DNA of 64,000 nt from Candidatus Parvarchaeota archaeon. GTDB taxonomy: Archaea; Nanobdellota; Nanobdellia; WJKC01. Each line of letters opens with the position of its first letter. Position 1 is the stretch's first letter. The translations under genes and the position numbers were made by a program. The stretch covers positions 62,566 through 126,565 of the forward strand of contig JAUWZX010000001.1 in the NCBI GenBank assembly GCA_030615175.1, written 5' to 3'. The notes under the pieces are model-generated. The model made no database searches and was not told the origin of the DNA. It worked only from the letters and a program-made list of their open reading frames with translations. Shown here piece after piece: positions 1,761-53,647 of this stretch.

Positions 1761-2354
1761 ATGAATATTAAAAAAGCAGGATTATTAATAGGGTATGCGA
1801 GGAAAGCAATTAAAGCTAAATTTTCTGGCAGGAGTTACAAGCCTAAGAGCATGCCTGAATCCTTAAAAGTGAAAAGAGGCGTGTTTGTCACATTAGAGAA
1901 GCATCCTTCTAAGATGCTTAGAGGGTGTATTGGTTACGTTGAACCAGTGAAGCCTTTATATAAGGCGGTTATTGACGCAGCATTAAACGCTGCATTCAAG
2001 GATTTGAGATTTAAGGAGTTAAGAAAGGATGAACTTGACCGGTTAACAATTGAATTATCAGTGCTCACGATTCCTGAAGAATTAAAGGGCAGTCCAAGGG
2101 ATTATCCTTTAAAGATTAAAATTGGAGTTCACGGCTTAATAATTGAGTATGGATTAATTAAAGGATTATTACTGCCTCAAGTCGCTGTTGAGTGGGGCGT
2201 TAACCCTGTGCAGTTTCTTAAAATGACTTGCGAGAAGGCAGGCCTGCCAAGTGGTTCATGGATAGACCCTAGAGTAAAAGTATTCACTTTCAAGGCAGAG
2301 TTATTCAAAGAAGAGAAGCCTGGCGGGAAAGTAATTAGGCTTGCGCTTGCCTGA
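1761..2354 (+). CDS. AMMECR1 domain protein
   Basis: 197 aa with RGCIGY motif and LLPQVA segment typical of AMMECR1. Confidence 0.8.
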   Translation: MNIKKAGLLIGYARKAIKAKFSGRSYKPKSMPESLKVKRGVFVTLEKHPSKMLRGCIGYVEPVKPLYKAVIDAALNAAFKDLRFKELRKDELDRLTIELSVLTIPEELKGSPRDYPLKIKIGVHGLIIEYGLIKGLLLPQVAVEWGVNPVQFLKMTCEKAGLPSGSWIDPRVKVFTFKAELFKEEKPGGKVIRLALA

Positions 2355-2841
2355 ACCAGTAATACCACAGAACAAATATTAATATCATTAATCCTTCGCG
2401 CCATAGTATTGTGTGAATGAATTCAGTGATGCTTGGAATAGTAAGCGCCACTAAACTAATTCCTACTAATCTGAGGATGTTAACTGCATAAATAACAGGA
2501 ATTCCTATCAGGGCTTTCTTCTTGCTGCTCCACTGCCTTGGACTCGCTGCCACTAACGCTATGAAAGCCAGTATTGAGCGCCAAGCAGTGCATGCTTCGC
2601 CAATAGCTATTAATTCCCCGTTACTTAACTCTATTGAAGGCATGCCTTCAAAGTCAATGCTTGAATGCTTAACACCAATGATGCTTAAGAAGAAACTTGT
2701 CTGGTCGCGCTCGATTAATTCAAGAGGGTATAAATTAATGTTTAATGCTGCTATTAAGTATAATGGTGCTGCCATGACATTAAAGATTATCAGGAATCTT
2801 AATACCTGCCATAACTGCTCCTGATTTAATGATAAATACAT
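2335..2841 (-). CDS. archaeosortase/exosortase-family transpeptidase-like membrane protein (short form)
   Basis: 168 aa, 4-5 TM helices. IGEACTAWRSILAF matches the exosortase Cys motif (EACSGxRS-like). IYAVNILRLVGIS gives the NxxR Arg motif and FIHTILWREG the His motif. These are the Cys/Arg/His triad in the canonical order. Confidence 0.65.
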   Translation of the reverse strand: MYLSLNQEQLWQVLRFLIIFNVMAAPLYLIAALNINLYPLELIERDQTSFFLSIIGVKHSSIDFEGMPSIELSNGELIAIGEACTAWRSILAFIALVAASPRQWSSKKKALIGIPVIYAVNILRLVGISLVALTIPSITEFIHTILWREGLMILIFVLWYYWFRQAQA

Positions 2842-2855
2842 TGATTAATTATTCA

Positions 2856-3320
2856 TCATTTATGCTTTTTAATTCCTACGTTAATGTTCTTTATGCGTTT
2901 CAGGACTAAATCGCGGATTAATGGCTCGAAAATCCTGCTGCCTGCCTTTTTTAAGACCTTATTAATTAATGATTCGTATTGCTTGTAAGCGTAAACAGCC
3001 GCTGCTAATGCGTCACGCTCATGATAATTGCTAAACTTTACTTCATAATTCATGACTAATTCATTCTTACTATTTCTTTTCAAATCATTCTCAGGGCTTA
3101 ACAGCACTGCCTCGAACTTGCTTGCAATTAATTGAACGAATTCAGGAATCTTGGCAACATCGCATGCAATTATTAATGAACTGCCACGACGCGCTAATTC
3201 CTTAACCACTCCTGTAAAGCCATACTTCTTAGAGCTGTTTAGGAAAATTAACTCGCTTTTCATGTTAATAATAGCAATGCCTGTAGTAATGCCCAGGTCA
3301 ATTCCTACAATAACGTTCAA
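2856..3320 (-). CDS. DUF460-like RNase H-fold protein (putative nuclease)
   Basis: 154 aa. VGIDLGITTGIAIIN start, IIACDV and HERDALAAAVYAY resemble the archaeal DUF460 N-domain. Overlaps the upstream XPF gene by 4 nt, so likely an operon. Confidence 0.5.
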   Translation of the reverse strand: MNVIVGIDLGITTGIAIINMKSELIFLNSSKKYGFTGVVKELARRGSSLIIACDVAKIPEFVQLIASKFEAVLLSPENDLKRNSKNELVMNYEVKFSNYHERDALAAAVYAYKQYESLINKVLKKAGSRIFEPLIRDLVLKRIKNINVGIKKHK

Positions 3321-3979
3321 CCCTTATCATACTCCTTATTAATTAATTCAATTATGCGCTTTGCAATGACTGGACCAACTTTATCAACTTCAATTAATTC
3401 ATCTTCTCCTGCTGAGAAAATGTTTTTCAAAGTCTTGAATTTCTTAAGTAAATTAATTGCTATCTGCGCTCCAATATTAGGGAATGAAGCGATAACTGCT
3501 TCCATGAAGTCAGTGTCAGTTAATTTCTTCCTCTTTACGCCGTAAATAATTGGTCGCTTAAGTTTTAACTGCTCCCTCCTGGCGTAAGCAATAATGAGTA
3601 ATGCAGTTTCAACGCCGTCATCAACAATTATTACTGGAATCCCGAAATCAGTTGTAATGCTTGCCAATGCACCTCTGACAGCATTAGGGTGAAGCCTTGA
3701 ACTAAGCAATGAATCACCTTCAATTATAATGACTGGTCTCTCATAATTATCAATTAATTCCTCGCACTGCCTGAATAACCTGCCGTCAATAATGCTTGAC
3801 TCAAAATCCTTCAAAGTCTTGCGCTCAACAGCAACCCTGTCTGAAACAACGAAGTCAGCAACTTCCAAGTGCTTGGATTTAATGTGAACTCCATGCTCGT
3901 AAAGCGTTTTCGCAGCCTTGCTTTTCAACTCTCTTGAGTCAATAATCACTGTCACACTATTTCCCTTTTTCAGTGTCAT
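3317..3979 (-). CDS. xpf: XPF/Hef-type ERCC4 nuclease with C-terminal HhH2
   Basis: 220 aa. VIIDSRE...VADFVVSDRVAVERKTLKDFESSIIDGRLFRQ is the ERCC4 GDxn-ERKx3D core. The C-terminal PNIGAQIAINLLKKF...VDKVGPVIAKRI forms two helix-hairpin-helix motifs. Confidence 0.85.
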   Translation of the reverse strand: MTLKKGNSVTVIIDSRELKSKAAKTLYEHGVHIKSKHLEVADFVVSDRVAVERKTLKDFESSIIDGRLFRQCEELIDNYERPVIIIEGDSLLSSRLHPNAVRGALASITTDFGIPVIIVDDGVETALLIIAYARREQLKLKRPIIYGVKRKKLTDTDFMEAVIASFPNIGAQIAINLLKKFKTLKNIFSAGEDELIEVDKVGPVIAKRIIELINKEYDKG

Positions 3980-4015
3980 AATGCTTTTTAATAAAACCCT
4001 CTATTATAATTGTTT

Positions 4016-4885
4016 ATGAATGCCATGCTTCAAATCCTTTTAAGCACTTCATTAATAGCCTTTGCTCCTATCTTTGGAAGACTTGGTTCAACAATTATTC
4101 ATCCTGCAGTGTTTAGTTTTTATGACATACTAGTGGCCTTTATTGCGTTTACAATCATGATAATAACAACAAAGCCTAAAATGGTTAAAGGATGCTCCAG
4201 AATACTAATAACATCCAGTTTAATCTTTGGCGTCGGAGTATTAATGTATTACACTGCGTTGTCAGTAACTAGTTCTGTTAACGTATCATTCCTAGGGCAG
4301 ATTCAATTAGTGTTCATAATTCTTCTCGGCTTCTTAATCCTTAAGGAAAAACCAAGCCATCAGAAAGTAATCGGGGCAGTCATAGTCTTAATAGGGGGTT
4401 CACTAATAATTTACCAGGAAAACATTAATTTAAGTAGCGGGTGGATTTATGCAATAATTGCTTTCACATTATACTCCATTGTTAACATAGTTTTTAAGAT
4501 TTTAAGGAATAAAGGGTTGGACTCTAAAATAATATTATTCTTCTTAAATGGACTGGCTGCAGCATTACTGCTTGCTTTCATAATAATGTCAGGAATACCT
4601 TTAATTGTTAATTATGGATTACTCTTTGCCGTGATTAATGGATTACTTGTTGACGTTGCAGGGTGGTTATTATTCGTTAATGCATTAAAACGTGTTGAAT
4701 TAAGCAAGGCGTTCATGCTCTTCTCATTAACATCATTATTCACGCTGATTTATTCATTAATTATTTTCAGAACTGAAGTCACATTACTGCAATTACTTGG
4801 CGGCGTATTACTTATTGGAGGCAACATATTCGCTAATAAGCGTCAGGAGAAGTTTAAGGAAGCGCGCGACATCGCTGTTTCATAG
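4016..4885 (+). CDS. EamA/DMT-family transporter
   Basis: About 10 TM helices in two EamA-like halves. The ORF track starts at TTG 4010; ATG at 4016 is more likely. Confidence 0.7.
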   Translation: MNAMLQILLSTSLIAFAPIFGRLGSTIIHPAVFSFYDILVAFIAFTIMIITTKPKMVKGCSRILITSSLIFGVGVLMYYTALSVTSSVNVSFLGQIQLVFIILLGFLILKEKPSHQKVIGAVIVLIGGSLIIYQENINLSSGWIYAIIAFTLYSIVNIVFKILRNKGLDSKIILFFLNGLAAALLLAFIIMSGIPLIVNYGLLFAVINGLLVDVAGWLLFVNALKRVELSKAFMLFSLTSLFTLIYSLIIFRTEVTLLQLLGGVLLIGGNIFANKRQEKFKEARDIAVS

Positions 4886-6382
4886 GAATTTACTGAGTTT
4901 CCGCTGCTCTAATTCATCACTGCTTAACTCTCTTAAAGCGTTTTTCATACGCTTCTCCTTGTAGTAAGCACTCCAGTAATACTTCTCATCAATAGTTCCT
5001 TTAGTGATTAATACGTAAACACTGCCTGTTTTTGCCCTGCCAACCCTGCCCCTTCTCTGAACACTTCTTAATGCGCTAGGCACTGGTTCGAAAAAGATTG
5101 CCATGTCAATGCGCGGGATGTCAAGTCCTTCCTCACTCACACTGGTTGAGACAATTATTTTATACTCTCCTGCCCTGAACTTGTCAAGAACTTCTAACTG
5201 TTTTTTCTGAGTCATGCCACTCTTGCCTCTCTGACCAACGAATAAGTGAGTTGAAATTCCTTCACTTTTTAGTAATTCAATTATTCGTTCAGCAGTCACT
5301 CTGTACTGAGTGAAGATTAGTGAAGTCTTATCAGGGTTTAATTTTAAAATCTTCAGTAATTCATTGAATTTCGGATGCTCTTCTTCAGTGCTGAATGCAA
5401 TGCTCATTGCCTGCCTGAAGTCAAGGTCATTCATTAATGATTTAGCGGCCTTTGCTTTCTGTCTTTTCAAGCCATTAAAGTAATTCCTTAGCGGAGCTAA
5501 ACCTTGGGTTTGAAGCAGTTCAAGTGCGTGCATTACTTTAATAACTCTTGCAGTGCCGCTCATGACGCTGTACATATTAACATCTCTCTCGTCCTGCAAT
5601 TGCTTAACTGCCTGGCTTTGAATTGCCAGCACATTTCGTTTTGAAATCTTTCTTGCATCATGAGTGTCAATTACTTCCAAATCCTTTAATACTTTAAGGC
5701 CCGTGCTTAATGACTTGTTCAGGGATTTCAGTATTTCATTAAGTTCGCTTGGCAGTTCCAGGTAAATTCTGTTTATTAATTTCTTCTTAATGTATGGTTT
5801 AACGTCAGAGTCTTTCTCGCTCCTGTACAGTACTTGAGTGATTGATAAGTTATTGCATACTTCTTTTATTTTTTCCTTAGTGCTTCCTGGGCTTGCAGTA
5901 ATGCTCAGGATTCGCGGATTCTTTGAATGCTTTAAGAACTCCTTGCTAATAAAACAGTAGGCGTACTCCCCTACTGCCCTGTGGCATTCATCAAAAACTA
6001 TTAATGCATAATCACTTAAGTTAATCCTGCGCGTGATTATGTCATTCTCTATTGTCTGTGGTGTTGCAAAAATAATTCTTCTCTTTTTATACTCTCCTCC
6101 TCGTTCTTCTGGCTTCACTGCTCCAGTGAGTAATGCGCACTCTTTTTCCTTTATTGTTGAGTCATTAATGAATGATTTCATATGCTGGTCTGCTAATGGT
6201 TTTGTTGGTGCAAGAATCAGGGCTTTTGATTCAGGGCGCTTGTTAAGTCTGTGAATTGTAAGCATTAATGCTATCAGTGTTTTACCGAGACCTGTAGGCA
6301 ATACTATTAATGAATTCTTATTAACTGCTTTGGCAAATAATTTCTCCTGATACAGTCTTGGCGTGATTTTAAGTTTGTACAT
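4880..6382 (-). CDS. hef: Hef/FANCM-like SF2 helicase (helicase portion only)
   Basis: 500 aa. LPTGLGKT (Walker A), FDECH (motif II), an inserted helical domain, QRRGRVGR (motif VI). N-terminus MYKLKITPRLYQEKLF is typical of the Hef helicase domain. Confidence 0.8.
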   Translation of the reverse strand: MYKLKITPRLYQEKLFAKAVNKNSLIVLPTGLGKTLIALMLTIHRLNKRPESKALILAPTKPLADQHMKSFINDSTIKEKECALLTGAVKPEERGGEYKKRRIIFATPQTIENDIITRRINLSDYALIVFDECHRAVGEYAYCFISKEFLKHSKNPRILSITASPGSTKEKIKEVCNNLSITQVLYRSEKDSDVKPYIKKKLINRIYLELPSELNEILKSLNKSLSTGLKVLKDLEVIDTHDARKISKRNVLAIQSQAVKQLQDERDVNMYSVMSGTARVIKVMHALELLQTQGLAPLRNYFNGLKRQKAKAAKSLMNDLDFRQAMSIAFSTEEEHPKFNELLKILKLNPDKTSLIFTQYRVTAERIIELLKSEGISTHLFVGQRGKSGMTQKKQLEVLDKFRAGEYKIIVSTSVSEEGLDIPRIDMAIFFEPVPSALRSVQRRGRVGRAKTGSVYVLITKGTIDEKYYWSAYYKEKRMKNALRELSSDELEQRKLSKFL

Positions 6383-7557: not shown

Positions 7558-7604
7558 TACAATTAATAATTAATGCCTGCAGGGTTAAAAAAAGTTTCTA
7601 ATAA

Positions 7605-7676
7605 TGGGCTCGAGGGGATTCGCACCCCTGTTCTCCACCGTGTGAGGGTGGCGTCATGCTGCTAGACCACGAGCCC
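7605..7676 (-). tRNA. tRNA-Val (anticodon CAC)
   Basis: Acceptor GGGCTCG/CGAGCCC, anticodon stem-loop CCACC-CTCACAC-GGTGG, T arm AGGGG-TGCGAAT-CCCCT. 72 nt, no intron. Confidence 0.9.
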
Positions 7677-7895
7677 ATTAATACTCAGACAAGCAATCCA
7701 ATCCTTATTTTTTTCGGTCAAGCCTTTTTCTAAAAGGGTTGGACCACGAGCCCTCTGATTCATTTATTACATATAATCACTTTAAAATCTTTTTCGTGTC
7801 CGGTAATAATTAATTTTTCCTAATAAAGGAATTACCGGACGTGGACGCGTGCTCTATCCGTCGCCTTATAAAGTGTTAATTATTACTCTTCATTC

Positions 7896-8092: not shown

Positions 8093-8180
8093 TGGGCTGG
8101 GTCGGATTTGAACCGACGACCTTCACCTTTCTTATATCTTATTGTAAGGGTAACGTCCTAACCAACTAGACCACCAGCCC
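8093..8180 (-). tRNA. tRNA-Val (anticodon TAC) with canonical 14-nt anticodon-loop intron
   Basis: Acceptor GGGCTGG/CCAGCCC, anticodon stem TTACC/GGTGA, loop CTTACA[intron about 8129-8142]A, T arm GTCGG-TTCAAAT-CCGAC. Confidence 0.85.
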
Positions 8181-8533: not shown

Positions 8534-8644
8534 CTCCTTTTTTTTATAAGATTATGGTGATTTTAAGAACTTTTGGTGCGTTGTGGGATGCAAATATTTT
8601 ATTAAATAAGGCAATAGTTAATTTTAAAGTGGCACCCTTTAAAT

Positions 8645-8715
8645 GCGGCTGTTGTCTAGTGGTAGGATCTTGGCTTCCCAAGCCAATGGCCCGGGTTCAA
8701 TTCCCGGCAGCCGCA
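8645..8715 (+). tRNA. tRNA-Gly (anticodon CCC)
   Basis: Acceptor GCGGCTG/CAGCCGC, anticodon stem-loop TTGGC-TTCCCAA-GCCAA, T arm CCGGG-TTCAATT-CCCGG. 71 nt. Confidence 0.9.
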
Positions 8716-8717
8716 TC

Positions 8718-11386: not shown

Positions 11387-14300
11387 TTAAGCTTTTTTAT
11401 AAACAACGTATGACACTAGCAGTATTAATATTAAAATGCTTATCCAGTCAGTCGCGCTTGCCATAACATAATTAAACACTCCTGTCGAATAAGTAGTCTG
11501 AACCAACGCAGTGAACAATAAAGTCGCATTATCAACTAATGACTCACTCGTCGCCTGAAAATTAATCGAATAAGTACCTATAGTCACAGGCATCACATCA
11601 ACATAATAAAACGCCTTGCCTCCAGGCTCAATCATTGTCGACAAAATCTTAGACTCACTGTCAACAAAACGAGCCGTTATCCCTGCAGGAATCATTGTCA
11701 AAGTATAATTATGAGGATTATCAGTCGGATTCCTAACCTCCAAATAAGCACTCCTATAACCAGCCTTGCCCTGAGCATAAGCCTGCGACTCAGGATGCAA
11801 ACTGAAATGTGACTCGTAAATATTCACTGTCCTAACATAATCATCCCAGTAATCAGACAAATTAGCCAACACCCTGAAAGTCTTGCTGCCATGAACCACT
11901 GGATTCTCATAAGCATACGAAACATGACCTGCCCTGGACGCATTAGTGCTTAATGCTAATACCCCGTCAATAGTCATCGTAACATTCAACGAGTCTAACG
12001 GGCTTGTATTGCCAGAACACAACACGTAATCAGCTGTTAACGTCTGGTTAGTCCCTATTAAAGTCCTGCTCGGAACATGATAAGCCCCCACTATATCATC
12101 AATACTGAATGAATAATGACTCTCAGTAGTATTACCTAAATCACTTACTGCATAGATTTTGGCATTATAGTCCTTGCAGTCCCATGCCAATGGGGAGTAT
12201 GTCCAGTTGCACCTGTACAGGAATCTCCCAGCGTTTTCGCACGTGAATTCTTCTGAATATACTTCAGCTCCTGCTGAATCATTAACGTCCAGGTGCACTG
12301 CAGTCACTGCCTGCTCTGTAGTGAATACTAGGACTGTTAAGTTCATTTGCTCGCCTGTCCTGTCAACCTTATCGTCATAAGTGAATTGCATTATATCAAA
12401 CGCCACTTCATCTGCTTCCTGAGTAATACTTACTGGTATCTTCTTCCACAAGTAAGTGTTTTCATGGATTTTGTAGTGATGGTCTGAATTATTAAAGACC
12501 GTGAAGTAGAACCTGCCTCCATACGAGTCGCCTGCACTGACTGCTGTCTGCTGGAATCCTATTGGATAATATGAAAACTTTATTAACGAACTCGTAATAT
12601 TGAATTCGTATAATGTATTATTCTCCGCACCCCACGTCTTTTCTTTGAAGAATCCTATAGCATCATGCGTCTGGTTGTTCAGGAATACAACCCAGTCAAG
12701 ACTTGATAATTCTATGCTAAAACTAAGGTTATAATTAGTTACTGTTCCTGAATCATTAATCACGATATTAGTGAAGCGGGTCTTATTTAATGGCATTTCA
12801 AAATACTTTAACCAATCAATTGTTTCACCTGAATTAAACGTTAAATTCTCATCCAACATGAAATAATAAGTGTCTGGCATCGTGATGTTAACCCCCGCCG
12901 GATGACTGCCCTTCACGCTGCCATTGTATGAGTGCACTGCTACTGAAGGAGTCATTTCCAGTTTAGTTGTTAAACCAGTAGCTGTTCTTAACTCACCAAG
13001 CGTTACTGTAGTATCATTATACTCAATTGTTTTTAATCCATAATCAGTAACGTCATCCAACTCATTATGCACGCTGCCTAACTTATCAAACACTGACAGC
13101 ACCTGATACTTTGTAGGACTTAAATCAAGCCTGTAAACTGAATTACTCACATTCCACGTCGGCGCTGTCTCATTAATTATTCCATTACTGTAAGATTTCA
13201 CGTTATGACCTATTGGAGTGTAGTATAACGCGTACACATTACCATCCCTGTTAAAAGGCGAGTCATTCCCTGGCATGTTTATCGGAAAATAAATATCTGC
13301 ATGAGTCAAATTATTATCCGCCCCGCAAGTAGCATTCAATATCATTAACGGGACTTCATAGTAATCACCTGTCGGCAGCACATTAACCACCCTGATTCCT
13401 AACTCGTCTTCAACATCATTATAGTCCCCATCCCCATTAACATCATTGCAGTATGCAGGGTCAGGGAAATCATAACTGTAATTGAATAATTCATTAATCC
13501 TTGAAATATTAGTTACATGACTCATTGACAGGTTAACCTTGTACTTGAATAACTCACTGTCATGACTTAACCACTCATTCTCCCACACCAAACTCAAATT
13601 CTTAACCAGGAACATAGCGTAATTATGCTCACCGTGCTTGCCGTTAAACGCCTGCAAGTGATAATAACCAGTGGCGCCCAGCTCGTAAGTAGCGTTATAG
13701 CAGTTAGTGCCGCACGAAGTCATGTTAATCCTCACCTCAGTAAAATTAGGTTTTATTAACACCACGTTCGGCATGCACTCGCTCGTGACATTAATCCCTA
13801 CAGTGTCCCCTGGATTTAACATCATGCTTGACAAGTTAAACGTCGGAGTCACTGTTGAATTACAATAATAACCAAAGTCGCATACCCTATCAGTTATGAA
13901 ATCCTCATCCTCATCGCACACAACTCCCTGCGGAATAGATACAGCATTACAGCAGCACTTAGGACTTCCTCCCCAATCCTCACCAGTGTCCTCACCGCAA
14001 CACCGAGCCCAAGCATTACGCATAGTACTGTAATCACTGTCCCATGAATATCCTATGGCATCCCAATACATAATATAACTTGAATCGTATCCGTACAGTG
14101 TAAAATATTTAAATGAAACTGGATCTCCATAAAAACCATCAACAAATTGTCCTTTATAATCTCCATCAATCCAACATTTCCACCAATTCGTAGAAGGATC
14201 GCCTGTAGTTAAATCAAATTCTAATTTAAAGTGATACAAATGATCAACAGAATAACTTGCTAATAATTCATGCCAAGTACCATCATAATATTTTAAGCCG

Positions 14301-17300
14301 CCGTCATCATCAAATCTTAAATAAATAGCTTTAGTTGAAGTATCTCTTAAATGAAATATACCCCTTTTATCGTTTACAGAAATCCCCCACCAAAATTCAA
14401 TAGTTCCTGTAGTTCTCACTCCAATATTATTAGTTCCTTGTAATGTATCTCCACTTGCATCTTTATCATATTTAATAACTTTCTTATGACTATCAAAATC
14501 AGAAATTATAGAAATTGTTCCCCCATTATTGTTATATCCATCAAGAAAACCAATATCAGTCCCAGTAGCACCAACAGCATCATCACTGAATGAGTATGTT
14601 GCATCATAGTCTGAAGTAGTGCTCCACGTTAGCCCTTCTGCCTCGCAGTTAGATTGACTCTGGTCCAATGCAGTATAATAATAATCACTGTAGTAGCAGA
14701 TGCTGCCGAACGCGTTAGAATCATTGTAGAAGTAATCACTTGTTGAGTCGTCACCGCAACAGGAAGAGTAAGCAGATGACTTATACAAAGCCATTACTTC
14801 ATTAGCATTAAGAGAACGATTATAGATGCGGGCATCATCAATAGTGCCATTAGCATAATACGTTGTTGAACTACCATGTCTTCCTATTTTACGATTAGCA
14901 AAATTATATGTTAATGAACCTGTTATCCCTGTCTGCTCACCTACATATTCACCATCAACGTAACTTTTTTTTGTTGAACCATCAAAAATAAATCCTATAT
15001 GGTGCCAGTTACCATCCGTTAATCCAGAACCATTATTAGACACGAAACGAGCAGTTGTATAAACACCAGTCCTAAGCTCACCAGTTGATACAGGAATACT
15101 TATCTCTAATTCTTGGCCACCAAATATTATATGGTAACCTCCTGCAGGAGAACCTTCGGATTTGAACCATGCAAAAGCAGAAACTTGAGTTGTGTATCCT
15201 AAATTATTAGATAAATCTATATAATCACCACTACCATCAAAACTCAAAGCATTACCATACTTGCCACTAACCCAGGAAGCATCATAAACTGTGCCGTCAT
15301 TAACGCCTGAATCATCACTCGCAAGCGTTCCTGAGGACTCATCAAAACGCCAATGAGCAACGAGCCCGTCACTGATATTATAAAGCCAGTTATAAGAATA
15401 CTGCTCGCAAACAGTCCGATTAAAATCAATTGACTGATGAGTGAAACTGCCATCCTGACAGAAATAAGTAGTATTACTTAAAGTACCATTATAGAAATCA
15501 TCACTAGCCGCATCATCACCACAGCAAGGAGCATAAGTATTATCACCAACACTGTAATCAGAGTCCCATGAGTAACCAACAGCATCAATGTAAGACGCAA
15601 CAATGTTTGCAGTTCTTTCAAATCTTAAATTATCAACACTGTCCCCTGCATCAAAAAAGGCTCCGTCATTAACAATTAAATCATCATCAACATACCAGTC
15701 AAAAGTGTCAGCAGCACAATCAAAAACCACTTTATGATGCTGCCATGCATTCTCACTAACTGCAACACCAGTATCAGTTAAACTACCCCCTTGATACTTA
15801 TAATTACCAGCATGAACATGCAATGCAAACTGCATATTATCAGCAGCATTATTACTATCAACTAATACCATAAACTGATAATTACCAGACCCATCATCAT
15901 CAAGCCAAGCCCAGAACTCAATAGTGCCTGTAACGACATTGCTAAAATCATTTCCAATATAGTAGTTTTCTGTAAAGTTAATCACTTTGTTATGGCCACC
16001 CCAATTATTAATAACCTCCACAACATTTGTGCCCCCCTCAATAAAATCAATAAAACCAATATTAGTACCAGTAGTGCCTACAGTCTCATCAGTGAATGAG
16101 TAAGTGCCAGGGTAATTAGTATTATTAATCCAGTCATGAGTTAATGCCTCGCAAGCAAACTTGCTTGAATCAGGCTCGATAACACTATAAGTACAGCTGC
16201 CACTACTGCAAGAATAATTCCTGTACTCAGTGCTATACACGCCATCAAGAGTATCACAATCCTCTGAAGAGAAACCGCAGCCAGAATCACTGCAAACACC
16301 AGCATAATACCTAACATTACCAGTACAATAACTGGTTAAATCACAATTAGGACAGCCAGTACCAGCATAATAACAAGTCACGCCTGACGCGCAGTAACCA
16401 TCACCAGCGCTGCCAGAATCACAAGTCAAATAATTAATAGGATAAGCACTTGCAGTGCTGCCATAACTACCCTCATTCGCAGCACCATCCTTTGCCCTGA
16501 CCTTATAAGTATACTGGGAGAAACAATCCAAACCACTATCAACATAAGGACTTGAAACCCAACCACTATCAGTACTACCAGGATTGCTTGAAGTCTCATC
16601 AACCTGATAAGAATCAACACCAGTAGTGACTGTATTTGAACCAGTTGCATTTACTTTATAAACTCTTAAATTCCTGAAAAATGTAGTTCCGTCATTAATT
16701 TCATCCGGGTAATGATAAGCCCCTACTCTAATTTCATGTTCAAATTCCTCTGTTACTGTAAATGTTTCATGAAATGGAGTCCAGTAAGTATTACCTGTTC
16801 CAAAACTCGTGCTTTTAATCCAACTATCAGTTGTATTAGCAGTCCATATGAAAACTGTTGATGTTCCTCCTGCCGCGTTTCTCGTGCTGTCAACTCTTAC
16901 TTCTCCTTCTAATATAAATATGTTTCCTACTTCTAATGAACCCATTGTCACGATATCTTCATCAAGATAGTAGTTATACCCTGTGCCTGAATAATTATGC
17001 GCTTCTATACTATTCTCTAATAAATTATTCACATTCCCACTCTCATCAAACGATTTCAAGTAGTAATAATAATCATCACCAGCGTCACTAACACTGCTCC
17101 AACTCACTTGAAGAGAAGTCGTGGACGCTTCAGTCACAGTGGGCGCGTCGGGTGTGCCAGGAACAGTACCATCAATAGCTCCTGTATCACTGTACGTATT
17201 ATCCATAATGAGAGGAGTGAGTCTGAAATTATCATAATAATACTTGGTTGCGGCAACGCCATTCCTGTCGTCCTTTAAAATAAAAACTCCGCTACTAGTA

Positions 17301-20300
17301 TCAGACCACTTCCTGATAAGCACACAATCAACATAAAACCTAAAAACACTGCCGTCAAAAATAACCTTCCAATGCTGGCCAAAAGCCCCGGCAACAGTAA
17401 CGCCATCAACCTGATAATCACCACTAAGCCTTCGTATGTAATTCCCGCCAACCAGAATGCCATGCTCGCTCCCGTCATTCAATATATCAACCTCGAGCTC
17501 GAAAGGCTCGCCAGAACCAATATCCTCAATCAAAGTCAAATAAGTGTCAGCGCTGCCAGAAGAATTAGACCATAACTCGCCGTCAGTAACACCAACAAGG
17601 CCATCACCCAAAGTAGCAGTCCACACAGGATTACTCGTGTAATCACCATCACTAAAATCATCCCACACGCCGCCAACAGGAGTGTAATTCCCATCAGAAG
17701 TGTTGCTCCTGTAAAAACCATGAGATAACAAACCAGACTGCATATCATTAATAACCTCGCTTTGACTAAGAACACGATTATAAATACGCACTTCATCAAC
17801 AATGCCATTGAAATAGTGTCCAGAACCTGCTGCTGCAGACGCTATAGTTACATCATAAGGATTTGAAACCAAACTAATTGCAGGAGTACTATCTGAACTA
17901 ACTAATAATCCATCAACATACATAACTGCTGTCGTTGCAGAAGCATCCCAAGTCACACTCGCATAATGCCAATCAGTATCATCAAAATCATAAAAAGGAT
18001 CAACACAATTCCCATAAGTTGTATCACAAATATAAAAATTAAGACGACCACTACTCGACCATAATTTCCAACCAACAGTACCATAACTTCCAGTACTCCC
18101 TGTAGCAGCAACAATTGGCTCCCTATACGCTGTAAGATTCTCTGACTTAAACCACACTAAAACAGAAAAATCATTAGCAAGAGAATCCAAATAAGGAATA
18201 TCTTCAACAAGCACAGTATTAGGTGAAACGCCTCCATCAAAACTTAATGCCCCACCATGTTCACCAGTAGTATAAGTTCCACCATTAATACTCCCATCAT
18301 AATCATATATACTGTGGTCTTGAGCCACGCTACCACTACCCTCCTCAAAAGGCAAATACAATAATAAACTGTCATTTCCCTCAACAAAAGTTAAATCCAT
18401 TTCATTATTCACGTTATCAGCAGTCACTGTCAAGTTAGGCGCTGAAGGCCCAGTCCTGTCTAATGTAACATTGCAGACAGTTGAACTCCAATCACTATAA
18501 TGACCCGGACTGCTCTCCACATCCTGTATCCTAACCCTGTAACAATAAACAGTATTATCACTTAAACTGGAATGAGTATAAGACGTGTCAGTACCATAAT
18601 ACCTCTGCGCAGAAGAAGGAGTCGTCTCCTCAACACTATACTCATAACCAGTTGGCGGACTGCCAGACCACGCAATTACCATCTCACCCAAACCAGAATT
18701 CAACGATTCATTATCCTGAAATAAAACAGAATCCAAAGAAGGAGTTGAAAGAGCAGTGCAAAGATAACTACTGCAATACTCACCCGCCGCGCAATCACTA
18801 TCACCACAACAATCACTGCCACTACTACCAACACAAGAACTGGAACAGCAAATACCATCCTGCACGTAATCAGCACCAGACAAACCACTATCACACGAAT
18901 CAGTATCAACACAATTACCGCAACCCTGAGTATAACGATTACTACTAGCAGAATCAACACAAACCTCACCAGACGTTATACAATTAGCATCAGCATCAGT
19001 AACACCACTACCATCATTAACGCAAATACCATCAGCAGAATAAACCCCACTACTAACAGAATTATCACACTGCTTCTCACTAGTCACATCATCATCATCA
19101 CAATCACACTCACTATCAGTCACGACCTCATCAGTACAACAAGAACTGCCACCACAAAGACCATCCCTTAAATAACTCGCGCCAGCAAGAGAACTATCAC
19201 ACTCCCTGCTACCAGAACAACCACTATAATAAGTAGAATCCGCCTTAGAAATCACAGCAGTGTTAGCCCTGCAATCAGTACTAGCGCAAATACCGGCAGC
19301 AGTACCATCAAAAGCACCAACAACCTCACACTTAAGACCAGACGAATCACAACCACACACATCATCACTAGTGCCAAGAGAAGCATCACTGCCATAACTC
19401 ACATCATCAGTGCAAAGAACTCCATCAACACAAGCACGAGTAGAATTATAAAAATTATCACTAGTAGTATCATCACCACAACAAGGATCATTATCACCAG
19501 TAGTAGTGCCAGCAAACCAATCATCCTCACCTGAATTACAAGTTGACTGAGAATCATCAGGCTCACAACTACCACCACAAGTCTCCTCATCACAGCCCTG
19601 ATCCACCCAGGCAGTATAAGAGCAAGTGCAGGAACTAGTGCAAGAACTTGCAGTCCTTGTATACAAGTTACCTGAAGTCAAACCAATGTTCTGACCGCAA
19701 TCACTCGTATAAGTGCAGTCACTAACATTATCACAATCAGCCTCACAATTAGCCTCACTCTGAGTACAAGTACCATCACTCCAACCACTATAAGAACAAG
19801 CACAGGAAGAAGTGCAAGACCTAGTTCTCGTCTGATAAATAGTGCCACTACACTGAGTAAGAGCCTCAGTACAGTCAGTAGCAGAATCACAATCAGCACC
19901 GCAATTAGCCTCACTCTGAGTGCAAGTACCATCAACCCAACTACCATAACTACAAACACAAGCACTAGTGCACGCGCGGGACCTGGTCTGATAAATAGTG
20001 CCACTACACTGAGTAATGGCAGTGCAGTCACCAACAGCATCACACTGAGCGCCACAGGCCTGGGAACACGTCGAAGTACATGAACCGCCAGAACAAGTAT
20101 AAGAACCGCAATCCGCTGTAACACACGTAGAAAAAACGCAAGCTGTTTTCGTACACGAACCAGTCTTCCTAGCACAACTACCACTACATGCTACAGCGCA
20201 GGAAGCACAATACCAAGGAGGGGAAGGAGTCTGTACAGAAGTATAACAACTAGCATACATGGTGTCCTCATTCATGCAAGCATAATTAGTCGAGAAAGCA

Positions 20301-20359
20301 ATGGAAGATAAGGATAGCAAAACTAAAACTACTATTCCTAAACGCGACTTCACCCTCAT
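11387..20359 (-). CDS. giant secreted cysteine-rich surface protein (2990 aa) with Cys-rich modules, FN3, LamG/ConA-like domains and a C-terminal TM anchor
   Basis: Single uninterrupted ORF.
- Signal peptide MRVKSRLGIVVLVLLSLSSIAFS.
- Three CSGTIYQTR..C..C.CSY..W.DG.CTQSEANC modules.
- Four CCG[DE]D modules.
- FN3-like segments (e.g. TSLQVSWSSVSDAGDDYYYYLKS).
- Two Laminin_G_3-type domains (...FNGIVDEVRIYNRVLSQSEV; ...GTIDDARIYNRSLNANEV).
- Many N-x-S/T sequons.
- C-terminus ATDWISILILILLVSYVVYKKA. Confidence 0.85.
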   Translation of the reverse strand: MRVKSRLGIVVLVLLSLSSIAFSTNYACMNEDTMYASCYTSVQTPSPPWYCASCAVACSGSCARKTGSCTKTACVFSTCVTADCGSYTCSGGSCTSTCSQACGAQCDAVGDCTAITQCSGTIYQTRSRACTSACVCSYGSWVDGTCTQSEANCGADCDSATDCTEALTQCSGTIYQTRTRSCTSSCACSYSGWSDGTCTQSEANCEADCDNVSDCTYTSDCGQNIGLTSGNLYTRTASSCTSSCTCSYTAWVDQGCDEETCGGSCEPDDSQSTCNSGEDDWFAGTTTGDNDPCCGDDTTSDNFYNSTRACVDGVLCTDDVSYGSDASLGTSDDVCGCDSSGLKCEVVGAFDGTAAGICASTDCRANTAVISKADSTYYSGCSGSRECDSSLAGASYLRDGLCGGSSCCTDEVVTDSECDCDDDDVTSEKQCDNSVSSGVYSADGICVNDGSGVTDADANCITSGEVCVDSASSNRYTQGCGNCVDTDSCDSGLSGADYVQDGICCSSSCVGSSGSDCCGDSDCAAGEYCSSYLCTALSTPSLDSVLFQDNESLNSGLGEMVIAWSGSPPTGYEYSVEETTPSSAQRYYGTDTSYTHSSLSDNTVYCYRVRIQDVESSPGHYSDWSSTVCNVTLDRTGPSAPNLTVTADNVNNEMDLTFVEGNDSLLLYLPFEEGSGSVAQDHSIYDYDGSINGGTYTTGEHGGALSFDGGVSPNTVLVEDIPYLDSLANDFSVLVWFKSENLTAYREPIVAATGSTGSYGTVGWKLWSSSGRLNFYICDTTYGNCVDPFYDFDDTDWHYASVTWDASATTAVMYVDGLLVSSDSTPAISLVSNPYDVTIASAAAGSGHYFNGIVDEVRIYNRVLSQSEVINDMQSGLLSHGFYRSNTSDGNYTPVGGVWDDFSDGDYTSNPVWTATLGDGLVGVTDGELWSNSSGSADTYLTLIEDIGSGEPFELEVDILNDGSEHGILVGGNYIRRLSGDYQVDGVTVAGAFGQHWKVIFDGSVFRFYVDCVLIRKWSDTSSGVFILKDDRNGVAATKYYYDNFRLTPLIMDNTYSDTGAIDGTVPGTPDAPTVTEASTTSLQVSWSSVSDAGDDYYYYLKSFDESGNVNNLLENSIEAHNYSGTGYNYYLDEDIVTMGSLEVGNIFILEGEVRVDSTRNAAGGTSTVFIWTANTTDSWIKSTSFGTGNTYWTPFHETFTVTEEFEHEIRVGAYHYPDEINDGTTFFRNLRVYKVNATGSNTVTTGVDSYQVDETSSNPGSTDSGWVSSPYVDSGLDCFSQYTYKVRAKDGAANEGSYGSTASAYPINYLTCDSGSAGDGYCASGVTCYYAGTGCPNCDLTSYCTGNVRYYAGVCSDSGCGFSSEDCDTLDGVYSTEYRNYSCSSGSCTYSVIEPDSSKFACEALTHDWINNTNYPGTYSFTDETVGTTGTNIGFIDFIEGGTNVVEVINNWGGHNKVINFTENYYIGNDFSNVVTGTIEFWAWLDDDGSGNYQFMVLVDSNNAADNMQFALHVHAGNYKYQGGSLTDTGVAVSENAWQHHKVVFDCAADTFDWYVDDDLIVNDGAFFDAGDSVDNLRFERTANIVASYIDAVGYSWDSDYSVGDNTYAPCCGDDAASDDFYNGTLSNTTYFCQDGSFTHQSIDFNRTVCEQYSYNWLYNISDGLVAHWRFDESSGTLASDDSGVNDGTVYDASWVSGKYGNALSFDGSGDYIDLSNNLGYTTQVSAFAWFKSEGSPAGGYHIIFGGQELEISIPVSTGELRTGVYTTARFVSNNGSGLTDGNWHHIGFIFDGSTKKSYVDGEYVGEQTGITGSLTYNFANRKIGRHGSSTTYYANGTIDDARIYNRSLNANEVMALYKSSAYSSCCGDDSTSDYFYNDSNAFGSICYYSDYYYTALDQSQSNCEAEGLTWSTTSDYDATYSFSDDAVGATGTDIGFLDGYNNNGGTISIISDFDSHKKVIKYDKDASGDTLQGTNNIGVRTTGTIEFWWGISVNDKRGIFHLRDTSTKAIYLRFDDDGGLKYYDGTWHELLASYSVDHLYHFKLEFDLTTGDPSTNWWKCWIDGDYKGQFVDGFYGDPVSFKYFTLYGYDSSYIMYWDAIGYSWDSDYSTMRNAWARCCGEDTGEDWGGSPKCCCNAVSIPQGVVCDEDEDFITDRVCDFGYYCNSTVTPTFNLSSMMLNPGDTVGINVTSECMPNVVLIKPNFTEVRINMTSCGTNCYNATYELGATGYYHLQAFNGKHGEHNYAMFLVKNLSLVWENEWLSHDSELFKYKVNLSMSHVTNISRINELFNYSYDFPDPAYCNDVNGDGDYNDVEDELGIRVVNVLPTGDYYEVPLMILNATCGADNNLTHADIYFPINMPGNDSPFNRDGNVYALYYTPIGHNVKSYSNGIINETAPTWNVSNSVYRLDLSPTKYQVLSVFDKLGSVHNELDDVTDYGLKTIEYNDTTVTLGELRTATGLTTKLEMTPSVAVHSYNGSVKGSHPAGVNITMPDTYYFMLDENLTFNSGETIDWLKYFEMPLNKTRFTNIVINDSGTVTNYNLSFSIELSSLDWVVFLNNQTHDAIGFFKEKTWGAENNTLYEFNITSSLIKFSYYPIGFQQTAVSAGDSYGGRFYFTVFNNSDHHYKIHENTYLWKKIPVSITQEADEVAFDIMQFTYDDKVDRTGEQMNLTVLVFTTEQAVTAVHLDVNDSAGAEVYSEEFTCENAGRFLYRCNWTYSPLAWDCKDYNAKIYAVSDLGNTTESHYSFSIDDIVGAYHVPSRTLIGTNQTLTADYVLCSGNTSPLDSLNVTMTIDGVLALSTNASRAGHVSYAYENPVVHGSKTFRVLANLSDYWDDYVRTVNIYESHFSLHPESQAYAQGKAGYRSAYLEVRNPTDNPHNYTLTMIPAGITARFVDSESKILSTMIEPGGKAFYYVDVMPVTIGTYSINFQATSESLVDNATLLFTALVQTTYSTGVFNYVMASATDWISILILILLVSYVVYKKA

Positions 20360-20747: not shown

Positions 20748-20930
20748 GAAATAAATAAAGAAGTATCAGGAATATATAAATATTAAGAATTAAAATAAAA
20801 AAATAATAAATTAGTTGCAACTACTTCATATATCAGTCCTGAAGCCACACTTAATATTAAAGCAATTTTGAGATTGGTATAAACAAAGAACCCTGAATAA
20901 ATATTAATTACTGGTTACGCTAACAATGAA

Positions 20931-21200
20931 GGGCGCATCCTTGGGTTGGCAAGGTAAGCGCTTAAAGGTTTAACTGAACGGGCTCCTCCACCCCGTTGAC
21001 CTGAAAGCACGACTCAACATGCTTAAGGCTGCTTCCTCCCGGATCTGACCCGGTTCACAAGTTGAACCGCCAGACAGGGCGAGGCTTCGCAGAAACCTGA
21101 ACAGGCCCTTAAACCCAAACCAAGTCGTCCCAAGGCATTCAGCCCCACCATAAGGGGGTTTGCGGTAACAGGGAACCCCTAACTCCCCGGCCTAGCACCC
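20931..21200 (-). ncRNA. signal recognition particle RNA (archaeal 7S/SRP RNA)
   Basis: GC-rich non-coding island. The minus strand starts GGGTGCTAGGCCGGGGAGTTAGGGG. It contains the helix-8 signature GGTCAGATCCGGGAGGAAGCAGCC (compare the conserved GGUCCGGAAGGAAGCAGC). The 5' GGGTGC pairs with the 3' GCGCCC, and long helix-5 pairings are visible (CCTTGGG/CCCAAGG, TTTAAGG/CCTTTAA). Ends are approximate to within a few nt. Confidence 0.85.
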
Positions 21201-21222
21201 AAGTAAAGAATTAGTAATTGGG

Positions 21223-21251: not shown

Positions 21252-24200
21252 CTATCTGCTGCGCTTGCGGTACACAATAAGCGAAGCAAGGATAAGAAGC
21301 AATAGGAAGCTGAAGTAATCAGTAGCTCCTGCAGTGTGAACCCCGAAAAAGCCAGTCTCCTTGGTGAACACTGTTACTTGAAAGCCAATGGAATCAGTGA
21401 TGTTAGGGCATGCGCCAGTGCTCGTGAACGCTAATTGAACGTCGCGCTCGCCAGAGCTTAAAGGAAGCACTGTAAGCCTGATTAACCGCTTAGCGCCTGG
21501 AAGAATTGAAAAAGTTTCGGCATTAAATTCCCTGTTATTAAAAGACTTTTCACCAGTCCTGTAAGTAATTAATAAACCATTATCATAAGATGTTGCAGGA
21601 CTGTACTCAACAGGTATGTTGCCTAGGTTTGTCAAAGTCACTAATACCCTTCCAATCTCATTTAAAGCAACAGGTATTGCAGTAGTAATGCCTGGACTGA
21701 CTGATGAAATATCCAGTGGATTCAATATTGTAAAATTAAAATCCTTTAATAATTCATCCCAGCCGCCAGTCGCAGTAGAGTAAGAACAATTTAATTGCAT
21801 ATTATAAGACTTGCCAAAGTCAGCGCAGCTAAAAGTTCCGAAATCAAAAGTTACTAACCCTGAGTCTCCAACCCTTACAATTGTTGGATTACTAGGGTTT
21901 GGTATGTAACTAAGTGTTGTGTTAAGAATACAGGTTAAGTTCTCAAGCAGTTCATCGCCACTATTTCTTATCAGGAATTCTGTAACGAAGTCGCCTCCCA
22001 AGTAACTGCTGTTAGAATCTGAAGCTGAAATGAATATTCCAGGCAGTCGTCCATTCTCGCATACTGCATCAATATTCCCGTCATTATCAAAGTCGCAGGT
22101 CCCTCCATTATTAATAACAGCGCCATTACAGCAGCAGGTCAGCGTTAAATTGCCAAAGTCATCACTATCCCCGTCATCACCGCAGCACCTACTGCCAGTC
22201 GCTGTTGCACCAGCCAGCCATGTATAACCATAGTACTCGCAAATAGTCTGATTAACATCAATAGCCTGCTCAGTTAAAACACCATCATGACAGAAATAAG
22301 TAGTGGTAGCAAGAGTGCCGTTATAGAAATCATCACTAGCCGTGTCATCACCGCAGCAAGAAGTGTTATTGCCAATAGTTGAACCAGTAAGCCAAGTGTA
22401 ACCACCTGCCTCGCAAAAAGTCTGCCAAGCATCCCTATCACTAGATGGTGAACCATTATAGCACGCGCGACTGGAATTATAGAAATCATCACTAGTCGTG
22501 TCATCACCGCAGCAAGGGCCTTTACTCCCGATGATTCCTGTATTTTCAATAAAAGAAAGAGTGTCATCATAATAATTCGTAACCACAATATCAAGAATTC
22601 CATCTTCATTTAAATCACCTAAAGCAACAAATGATGATTCGGCTCCAGTAGCACCAGTAACTTGAGCGTCAAAAGTGCCGTCACCATTACCAGCAAGGAA
22701 AGAATAAGTATCATCATCATAATTTACAGTAACAATATCAAGATTACCATCATTATTTAAATCACCTAAAGCAATATCTAGAGGATTAGTCCCGACACTA
22801 ATGGTTACTTGAGCATCAAAAGTGCCATCACCATTACCACTAATAAAAGAAACATTATTATCATTATAATTCGCAGTCACAATATCAAGATTACCATCCT
22901 TATCCAAATCACCAATGGCAACACCTATAACCCAATTACCAACAGCACCAGTCACTTGACTATCAAAAGTGCCATCACCATTACCAGCAAGGAAAGAATA
23001 AGTATTATTAGCATTATTTGTAACCACAATATCAAGATTACCATCCTTATCCAAATCACCAATGGCAACACCAAAAGGATTCCATCCAGTAAGAATAGTT
23101 ACTTGAGCATCAAAAGTGCCATCACCATTACCACTAATAAAAGAAACATTATTATCATTATAATTCGCAGTCACAATATCAAGATTACCATCCTTATCTA
23201 AATCACCTAAAGCAAGAAATGCAGGACCACTCCCCGTGGCACCAGTTACTTGAGCGTCAAAAGTGCCGTCACCATTACCACTAATAAAAGAATAAGTATT
23301 ACTAAGACCGTTCGTAACTACAATATCAAGATTACCATCATTATCTAAATCGCCAATGGCAACATCATAAGGTTCGGTTCCAGTAGCACCTGTCACTTGA
23401 GCATCAAAAGTGCCATCACCATTACCAGCAAGGAAAGAATAAGTATCATCATCATAATTCACAGTCACAATATCAAGATTACCATCATTATTCAAATCGC
23501 CAATGGCAACACGCATAGGTGAAACCCCAGTACTGCTCGTTACTTGAGCATCAAAAGTGCCGCCACCAGTAAACCATTCATAACCCTTTAACTCGCACAC
23601 GCCTTGACCGCTCGTGTAATTAATATAGTCTCCAAACCAGTCCTGATAATAATGATGGTCAGCGTCTAAGATAATGCCTCCATAACTGCACATTTGAGAT
23701 GAATTATAGAATATGTCAGTGAAGTCATCATCACCGCAGCACGCATCATTACTGCCAGTAGTGGTGCCGGAAAGCCAGATGTAACCACTTGCCTCGCAGG
23801 CAGTCTGGTTAAAATCAATTGATTGCTCAGTGAAAACGCCATCCTGACAGAAATAAGTAGTGGTAGCAAGAGTGCCATTATAAAAATCATCACTGGCTCC
23901 ATCATCACCACAGCAAGCATCATTATTGCCAGTGGTAGTGCCAGTAAAGTAAATATAACTATACTGCTCGCAAATAGTTTGATTAACATCAATAGCCTGC
24001 TCAGTGAAACTGCCATCCTTACAGAAATAAGTAGTGCTGCCAATAGTGCCATTATAGAAATCATCACTAGCAGCATCATCACCGCAGCAATTAGAGTAAG
24101 CAGATGATTTATACAAAGCAGTTATTTCATCAGCAGAGAGAGCGTGGTTATAAATGCGGATATCATCAATAGTGCCGTTATAAAAGTAAATTGCACCATA

Positions 24201-53134: not shown

Positions 53135-53647
53135 ATGAGGGGGCGGCCGAGCAAGTCAAAGATAAGGGAGCGGATTGCTGCAATAATAAACAAGATTGGA
53201 TTAAGTTATGGTTATGAAATTTACAAATTTTACAAAGAAGTTTACGGCGACGTGACTTCAAGAATTATTTACTACCACTTAAAAAAAGGAGCTGAAATAG
53301 GTGAATTCAACATTATCCGCACTAAAAGCGAGTTAGGCCTTTATAGCTGGGGCGCTGAAAGTGAAAGAGTTTACTACGCAATTGGTCCATACGCTGCACT
53401 AAAGGAAGATGGCTTAATTACTGCTTCAAAAATTAATTATGAACCAAGAGAACTTAAGTACGACTGGGAGGAAGAAATACAAAATTATTATAAAAAATTA
53501 AGGGAAAAAGCAAGGAAAGTCAAAGGCAAGGATGCTGGAAGAATAATCAATAAGTGTGATAAATTAATTAGTTGGTGCAGAATGAGATTAAATAATCCTG
53601 AAGAGTATGTTAAAAGAATAGAATCAATTAAAACCAGTCTACACTAA
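53135..53647 (+). CDS. hypothetical protein with PadR-like winged helix
   Basis: About 170 aa. GYEIYKFYKEVYGDVTSRIIYYHLKKGAEIGEF resembles a PadR-type wHTH. Confidence 0.4.
   Translation: MRGRPSKSKIRERIAAIINKIGLSYGYEIYKFYKEVYGDVTSRIIYYHLKKGAEIGEFNIIRTKSELGLYSWGAESERVYYAIGPYAALKEDGLITASKINYEPRELKYDWEEEIQNYYKKLREKARKVKGKDAGRIINKCDKLISWCRMRLNNPEEYVKRIESIKTSLH

Follow-up and report, generated by a model that had tools for sequence, protein, structure and literature searches.

A DPANN archaeosortase homologue and two giant surface proteins with uncatalogued C-terminal tails: a candidate sortase/signal pair in a Candidatus Parvarchaeota archaeon

We analysed a stretch of 64,000 nucleotides from Candidatus Parvarchaeota archaeon (assembly GCA_030615175.1, contig JAUWZX010000001.1, positions 62,566 to 126,565 of the forward strand), referred to here as the window. 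It encodes a small membrane protein of the exosortase/archaeosortase family and two giant surface proteins, of 2990 and 2406 amino acids (aa), that end in related tails of a short motif, a transmembrane (TM) helix and a basic end. Together these form a credible new sortase/signal pair, with the giants as the best substrate candidates in the window; their pairing, any cleavage and the fate of the product are inferred from sequence, and we lean, without pressing the point, towards the view that the sortase processes the two giants. The evidence for pairing comes from this 64-kb portion of a genome of ~727 kb, together with the contigs of relatives.

The window sortase

The archaeosortase-family gene (2335..2841, minus strand) is present as a single copy in the window and codes for 168 aa from an ATG start codon, which is supported because the N-terminus aligns with those of its homologues. 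As originally predicted, this polytopic open reading frame (ORF) carries Cys, NxxR and His motifs in that order: GEACTAWRS (Cys84, Arg88), NILRL (Asn121, Arg124) and FIHTILWRE (His143, Arg148). The catalytic-site codons, also on the minus strand, lie at 2590-2592 (Cys84), 2470-2472 (Arg124), 2413-2415 (His143) and 2398-2400 (Arg148). The proposed family membership was borne out by hidden Markov model (HMM) searches, in which the NCBIfam exosortase/archaeosortase signature TIGR04178 scores 46.6 bits (cutoff 23, E=3e-12). PF09721 (EpsH) is the precomputed database annotation of the ORF and of all 15 homologues; our own Pfam scan of the ORF returned zero matches, a discrepancy that is unexplained. 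Two relatives already carry the label 'exosortase/archaeosortase family protein' in public sources. Judged by its sequence, the ORF is a genuine archaeosortase homologue, and an ordinary one at the level of the family. Its 3' end overlaps the convergent AMMECR1 gene (1761-2354, plus strand) by 20 nt (2335-2354), an overlap also seen in 16 loci of the Nanoarchaeia clade.

None of the named-subfamily cutoffs is reached by the ORF, with scores (and cutoffs) in bits of 54.4 (170) for XrtX, 48.0 (86) for XrtH, 44.4 (150) for ArtB, 41.2 (90) for XrtF, 37.3 (75) for ArtA, 30.3 (95) for ArtE, 26.6 (102.75) for XrtG, 24.9 (160) for XrtY, 21.1 (80) for pacearchaeosortase and 17.1 (125) for XrtM; no match to the heimdallarchaeosortase model is listed for it. 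A scan of GTDB with the sortase found 33 loci, two of them weak bacterial matches and the remaining 31 from DPANN metagenome-assembled genomes (Nanoarchaeia/'Parvarchaeota'/Woesearchaeota, Aenigmatarchaeota, Undinarchaeota and unclassified archaea), in keeping with the DPANN-type origin that had been proposed from the window sequence. A metagenome scan with the sortase alignment added 33 further loci, among which there is no new giant of the close clade. Four diverse DPANN members of the clade also fall below every named model, including ArtC, ArtD, ArtF, ArtH and heimdallarchaeosortase. Since the relatives are few and DPANN-confined, and neither the window sortase nor these four members fit a named model, we place the gene in an unnamed, DPANN-restricted clade. 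Across 68 distinct DPANN homologues the NxxR arginine (Arg124) and the histidine (His143) are invariant (68/68), the WRE arginine (Arg148) is kept in 58, and 41, among them the entire cluster to which the window sortase belongs, have Cys at the position of the nucleophile.

The AlphaFold2 model, which is confident (predicted local distance difference test, pLDDT, 88; predicted template modelling score, pTM, 0.79), has helices at residues 5-32, 38-55, 87-99, 104-110, 113-134 and 136-167; a PDB sequence search and a Foldseek search with the model gave only noise and no relative. The loop at 101-110 (PRQWSSKKKA) is strongly basic and the loop at 58-82 acidic, and hydropathy and the positive-inside rule therefore put Cys84 and His143/Arg148 at the outer ends of helices. 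The sortase is predicted to be a polytopic membrane protein with its catalytic residues at the outer membrane face. The original prediction had held that these enzymes use exactly this Cys/Arg/His arrangement; such a triad has been inferred from conservation (bioRxiv 10.1101/2023.06.07.544157), but the residues of ArtA found critical by mutagenesis are a Cys/Arg/Arg set, Cys173, Arg214 and Arg253 (PMC9263693). The window sortase carries the Cys, the invariant Arg124 and His143 and, in Arg148, a further conserved arginine.

The giant surface proteins and their tails

Giant 1 (2990 aa; 11387..20359, minus strand) has a signal-peptide-like N-terminal segment, a Cys-rich module, LamG-type domains and a C-terminal beta-sandwich module with the tail; giant 2 (2406 aa; 21252..28472, minus strand) has a signal-peptide-like N-terminus, a Cys-rich module, 19 FG-GAP repeats, a LamG domain and the same C-terminal module and tail. 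They are mosaic paralogues, with N-terminal Cys-rich modules that are 68% identical and LamG-type modules common to both. In the database, giant 2 is called as P0017 (2165 aa), which begins 241 residues downstream of the ORF start; the 2406-aa reading is probably right because the extra part (27750-28472) has the signal-peptide-like start and the 68% identity to the giant 1 Cys-rich module. The last 300 aa of giant 1 found no match in a database of 5.8 billion proteins, not even the query itself, and the giants are apparently not indexed there.

Giant 1 ends in SATDW-ISILILILLVSYVVY-KKA before the stop codon, and its tail (11390..11455, minus strand), ATD|W-ISILILILLVSYVVY-KKA, comprises the motif, a TM helix of 16 residues and the basic end. 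Giant 2 ends in GATDY-FSFLLLLILASLIVY-RKRSR, and its tail (21255..21326, minus strand), ATD|Y-FSFLLLLILASLIVY-RKRSR, has the same three parts. The earlier claim that these tails are the only two of their kind in the window stands: a six-frame scan found no other ORF with such a tail, and a tail-only HMM, built from other genomes with no window sequence included, selected exactly the two giants from 196 window ORFs (E of 8e-8 for giant 1 and 1e-7 for giant 2; next best 1.2). Against 4365 ORFs from 79 loci the same HMM recovered only surface proteins that bear the C-terminal module. A tail profile (A2) run against the 5.8-billion-protein database gave nothing at E<=0.1, the profile being too short for a database of that size.

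The consensus of 21 non-window tails, aligned by their helices, is G-hydrophobic-F, five residues, [V/I], [P/S], [G/A/S], [L/W], [D/N/E], [W/I/L/F/Y]-L-S, ~16 residues of helix and finally [Y/F]-K/R. The positions kept among the 21 tails are -1, which is acidic or an amide in 20, -4 (P/S), 0 (aromatic or aliphatic) and +2 (Ser), and the variants in orthologues and relatives include PGLDW, ATDL, PGLDL, PGLNA, SGLEL and SWDW. The originally proposed ATD[W/Y]-TM-[KR] signal, followed into relatives, survives in a looser form, as a conserved homologous tail, but the literal ATD[W/Y] is absent from the orthologous genomes; on the aligned tails, ATD[W/Y] is a local variant of the looser motif.

The tail follows a conserved module of ~170 aa that contains two invariant cysteines, and the proteins that carry it are very different, among them ones of 276 and of 2406 aa. 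Giant 2 has this beta-sandwich module, a linker and the tail in its last 205 aa (21255..21869, minus strand), and the corresponding region of giant 1, of approximate extent, was placed at 11390..12019 (minus strand) by the module HMM (E=3e-10) and alignment with giant 2. Searched at full sensitivity, the C-terminal 200 aa of giant 2 matched 17 other representative proteins (179-1482 aa), which have the module at the extreme C-terminus; the architectures with module and tail range from full-length proteins of ~280 aa with signal peptides to an FG-GAP protein (835 aa), a NosD/beta-helix protein (1252 aa) and one protein of 1482 aa. Pfam found nothing significant in the module. For this 205-aa end of giant 2, AlphaFold2 (pLDDT 86.7) predicts beta-sandwiches at residues 21-168, a low-confidence linker at 176-183 and a helix that starts directly after the Asp. 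Foldseek with the module model returned complement C3-type macroglobulin domains, and the fold resembles tandem macroglobulin/immunoglobulin (Ig)-like domains.

Substrates of membrane-embedded sorting enzymes have a tripartite layout in which the motif abuts the helix (bioRxiv 10.1101/2023.06.07.544157), and the tails described here share it. An upstream TGxF was considered as the signature motif and set aside, because the known enzymes of this kind use helix-abutting motifs and, in the AlphaFold2 model, TGFF sits where the beta-sandwich ends.

The view that the motif lies outside the named sorting signals agrees with our searches, in which neither the tail nor the enzyme subfamily fits any named curated model. 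Sorting-domain models including PGF-, PEP-, PEF- and VPXXXP-CTERM and LPXTG do not fit the tails, and the sub-cutoff scores (and cutoffs) are 13.1 (24) for Heimdall, 13.8 (19.9) for Loki, 15.9 (22) for GGIII and 11 (15.9) for LPXTG. Against the GlyGly-CTERM model TIGR03501 (cutoff 15.5), the 27-aa tail of giant 2 reaches 17.2 bits when taken by itself, but 13.6 in a 49-aa context, and giant 1 has no match; a GlyGly-CTERM identity was rejected, as only model positions 5-22, those of the helix and basic end, are aligned and the Gly-Gly is absent. Sequence comparison shows the tail to be a C-terminal domain that is specific and recognisable and occurs on diverse surface proteins; both it and the enzyme subfamily are uncatalogued in NCBIfam.

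Sortase and tail proteins on shared contigs

The sortase and a protein with module and tail reside together on five independent contigs, namely the window, L001, L005, L007 and L077. The L077 sortase is ~40% identical to that of the window, and its tail protein has only the module in common with the window giant (27% identity). In the closest sortase cluster, all four loci with adequate upstream flank contain a tail protein; the contigs of P0005 and P0006 have upstream flanks too short to reach a giant. The proposal of a new sortase/signal pair has behind it an archaeosortase-family enzyme and an uncatalogued tail; the pairing itself is proposed from co-presence on these five contigs, in a conserved syntenic block.

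The block has the order DnaG-type Toprim, tail protein, signal recognition particle (SRP) RNA, second giant, tRNAs, RsmB, Hef helicase, ERCC4, DUF460 and sortase. The positional orthologue of giant 2, beside the DnaG-type Toprim gene, is 295 aa, 835 aa or 2406 aa long in related genomes (L079 10001-10888, L076 10001-12508 and window 21252-28472) and always keeps the module and tail; the surface-protein island is hypervariable within a conserved frame. The SRP RNA lies 12-50 nt downstream of a surface-protein gene on the same strand in four genomes (window 20929-21202, minus strand; L076 12520-12792; L077 3994-4279; L079 12099-12377). Its position in the window is between the giants. There, as in L076 and L077, the gene directly before it is the tail-bearing one; L079 has a tail-less 388-aa gene in between.

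A second candidate signal in Aenigmatarchaeota

A different Cys-type sortase subclade, in Aenigmatarchaeota, lies 5-9 kb from proteins with the tail ITG[FM][FL]..NP-TM-RRKK, or in its wider form ITG[FMY][FLS]..(NP)..TM-RRKK/EKKK. These proteins are encoded at L011 14608-15204, L031 17167-18330, L033 15930-17771 and 18462-19196, and L013 2965-3471, and include one of 613 aa with a DNRLRE domain as well as proteins of 244, 387 and 168 aa. The 613- and 244-aa proteins of L033 are alike only in the tail and one short stretch, and the L031 protein has a Cys-rich region of ~160 aa in common with the 613-aa protein. A tail common to otherwise unlike proteins is the pattern expected of a sorting signal. 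No curated CTERM model matches it (GGIII-CTERM 15.9 bits, cutoff 22).

Genes around the sortase

Directly upstream of the sortase, across a 14-nt gap, is a DUF460 gene (2856..3320, minus strand), followed by an ERCC4/Hef nuclease gene (3317..3979, minus strand), both assigned by Pfam; ERCC4, DUF460 and the sortase are probably co-transcribed. The complete order Hef helicase-ERCC4-DUF460-sortase (2335-6382) is abutting and on one strand, and is conserved across DPANN phyla far above the link to surface proteins. Nothing on this order, and no functional explanation for it, was found in a literature search. An SdpI/DUF1648 protein was dismissed as a sortase partner, as it is near the sortase in only 2/69 loci, probably by chance.

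The window also codes for tRNAs Met (54-130), Val (7604-7677) and Gly (8644-8717), and an 88-nt tRNA call (8093-8180, minus strand) has an abnormal 4-base anticodon in ARAGORN but a good score, 59.5 bits, on the Rfam tRNA model, and is probably an intron-containing archaeal tRNA. A further membrane protease of the window, of 366 aa (53639-54739, minus strand), combines a YhfC-type intramembrane metalloprotease domain with an N-terminus that is signal-peptide-like, and has no evident tie to the tails.

Comparison with known systems

The system of ArtA and PGF-CTERM in Haloferax volcanii resembles the present one in the superfamily signature region, the conserved Cys and Arg, the outward active site, and a substrate model of a Sec-exported S-layer-type protein with a motif abutting the TM helix and a basic tail. 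The conserved pre-tail domain of the window giants is comparable to the PGF-pre-PGF domain of PGF-CTERM proteins. The two systems differ in that the ArtA model has 271 positions, against 168 aa in the window sortase, which scores at about half of the ArtA cutoff; the motif here is [P/S][G/A/S][L/W]D and not PGF, the basic end is short and Lys-rich, and neither lipid attachment nor PssA/PssD partners are in evidence. The short enzymes ArtB, ArtE, XrtH, XrtX and pacearchaeosortase are closer in size (150-170 aa) and share the helix arrangement around Cys...NxxR...H; XrtX, XrtH and ArtB are the best-scoring named models, yet the scores are far below cutoffs, and the signal differs from VPXXXP-CTERM and the rest.

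Among sorting domains, Loki-CTERM (NF033507) is likewise archaeal and C-terminal, and the PGLDW-type tail of one relative, P0023, aligns over all 27 of its positions, but this tail is the one that scores below the cutoff as given above, and the window tails and five others do not match. The SlaB-type stalk anchors and the predicted S-layer anchors of Nanobdella aerobiophila share an Ig-like beta-sandwich stalk and a single C-terminal TM helix with the giants, and SlaA/SlaB has a two-gene arrangement of giant plus anchor like that of L080 and L078. Those anchors are thought to be uncleaved, whereas the window tails have a conserved motif abutting the helix and a sortase gene on the same contigs.

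A proposed pathway and its alternatives

In the pathway that we favour, the sortase would be catalytically competent: a small cysteine protease, polytopic in the membrane and perhaps acting as a transpeptidase, whose active site of Cys84, Arg124 and His143 (plus Arg148) lies on the outer face. Its likely substrates would be Sec-exported surface proteins composed of a beta-sandwich stalk, a short flexible linker, [P/S]-[G/A/S]-[L/W/T]-[D/N/E], a TM helix 16 residues long and a basic end, represented in the window by the 2990-aa and 2406-aa proteins with ATD-W/Y as their local variant. If the enzyme acts as ArtA does on PGF-CTERM proteins, it would cut where Asp meets the helix, or close by, and remove the helix, after which the protein might be moved to a lipid anchor or released.

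Several observations weigh against this pathway, and many of them suit a different one, in which the enzyme is a real archaeosortase whose substrates lie elsewhere in the genome and carry another signal, and the tails of the giants are permanent, uncleaved TM anchors on a SlaB-like stalk. The C-terminal TM helices of Ig-rich DPANN surface proteins have already been interpreted as permanent anchors in a literature that leaves sortases unmentioned, and the Nanobdella preprint mentions none with its predicted anchors (bioRxiv 10.1101/2023.10.27.564410). The motif is moderately conserved, with D in 12/21 tails and N, E or Q in eight more, and the giants are paralogues whose tail is partly of common descent, so tail sharing alone proves little. 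They lie 8.5 and 18.4 kb from the sortase with housekeeping genes between, and the co-location is an old shared synteny block with no tight clustering, which would account for the proximity; L079 has no sortase within 10 kb of its two tail proteins. In L080 (3-6514) and L078 (2-5163), the gene of a tail-less giant (>1880 aa) or large protein overlaps by 4 nt the gene that follows it, which codes for a small protein of module and tail with a signal peptide of its own; the window giants have the anchor module fused to them. This SlaA/SlaB-like arrangement suits a simple SlaB-like anchor and a processed protein equally well, and the portion of the genome inspected is 64 kb. Against permanent anchorage, the tail keeps more than hydrophobicity: the -1, -4, 0 and +2 positions, the fixed helix length of ~16 and the [Y/F]-K/R end are retained; the window holds no alternative class of tail, and both partners are present at every evaluable locus of the close clade. 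On balance we regard the uncleaved anchor as unlikely, while giving it serious weight.

A further set of observations concerns the enzyme. Its closest conserved neighbours are not surface proteins but ERCC4 (56/69 loci, immediately upstream on the same strand), the Hef helicase (48/69) and DUF460 (45/69), a linkage that extends across phyla. The catalytic Cys is replaced by Ser in 27/68 homologues (26 with ISWDSTGWKS or a near variant and one with ISWDSSGWKS; L012, L016, L018, L021-L023, L027, L028, L030, L032, L034, L035, L043-L046, L049-L053, L055, L057, L059, L062, L064 and L066), and the Arg four residues after the nucleophile by Lys in 48/68. There is no convincing tail-bearing surface protein within 10 kb of the Ser-type sortases, and most of the distant sortase loci have no tail protein within 10 kb. 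The Ser substitution may mean that the nucleophile has changed or that transpeptidase activity has been lost. The clade could have drifted to another membrane role tied to the Hef helicase, ERCC4 and DUF460, or be partly degenerate, its likeness to sortases being ancestral only; we think this improbable, as the invariant Arg and His and the largely retained WRE Arg point to a maintained active site, the Cys is kept in the window clade, no known mechanism ties an outward-facing polytopic protease to DNA repair, and the gene order may reflect co-transcription only.

Least probable by far is that the tails are GlyGly-CTERM-like or other known signals handled by a different class of enzyme such as a rhombosortase. 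The scores in its favour are the TIGR03501 match of the isolated giant 2 tail and the Loki-CTERM score of one relative, but the former is confined to helix and basic end, drops below the cutoff in longer context and does not extend to giant 1, and no further curated CTERM model reaches its cutoff. The GlyGly-CTERM/rhombosortase system was moreover described as proteobacterial.

Processing of the giants by the window sortase thus remains the reading towards which we lean. A wider version of it, which we offer as tentative and rather doubtful, is that a DPANN-wide archaeosortase clade handles lineage-specific signals, [P/S]-G-[L/W]-D on a beta-sandwich stalk in Nanoarchaeia and ITG-F-F..NP in Aenigmatarchaeota, and so lipid-anchors or releases the hypervariable, adhesin-like giants by which these ultra-small episymbionts would contact their hosts, with the large Ser-for-Cys subclade representing a nucleophile switch.

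Implications

The Ser-type homologues and the Hef-DUF460-sortase order are separate puzzles of enzyme-family evolution and regulation. DPANN archaea need physical attachment to their hosts, and giant surface proteins are prime candidates for the contact. If the pairing is true, it would provide a testable anchoring mechanism for such proteins, a new subfamily and sorting-domain model to be used in annotating genomes, and, as a dedicated sortase/signal pair, a sequence tag with which the surface proteome of uncultured DPANN archaea could be listed.

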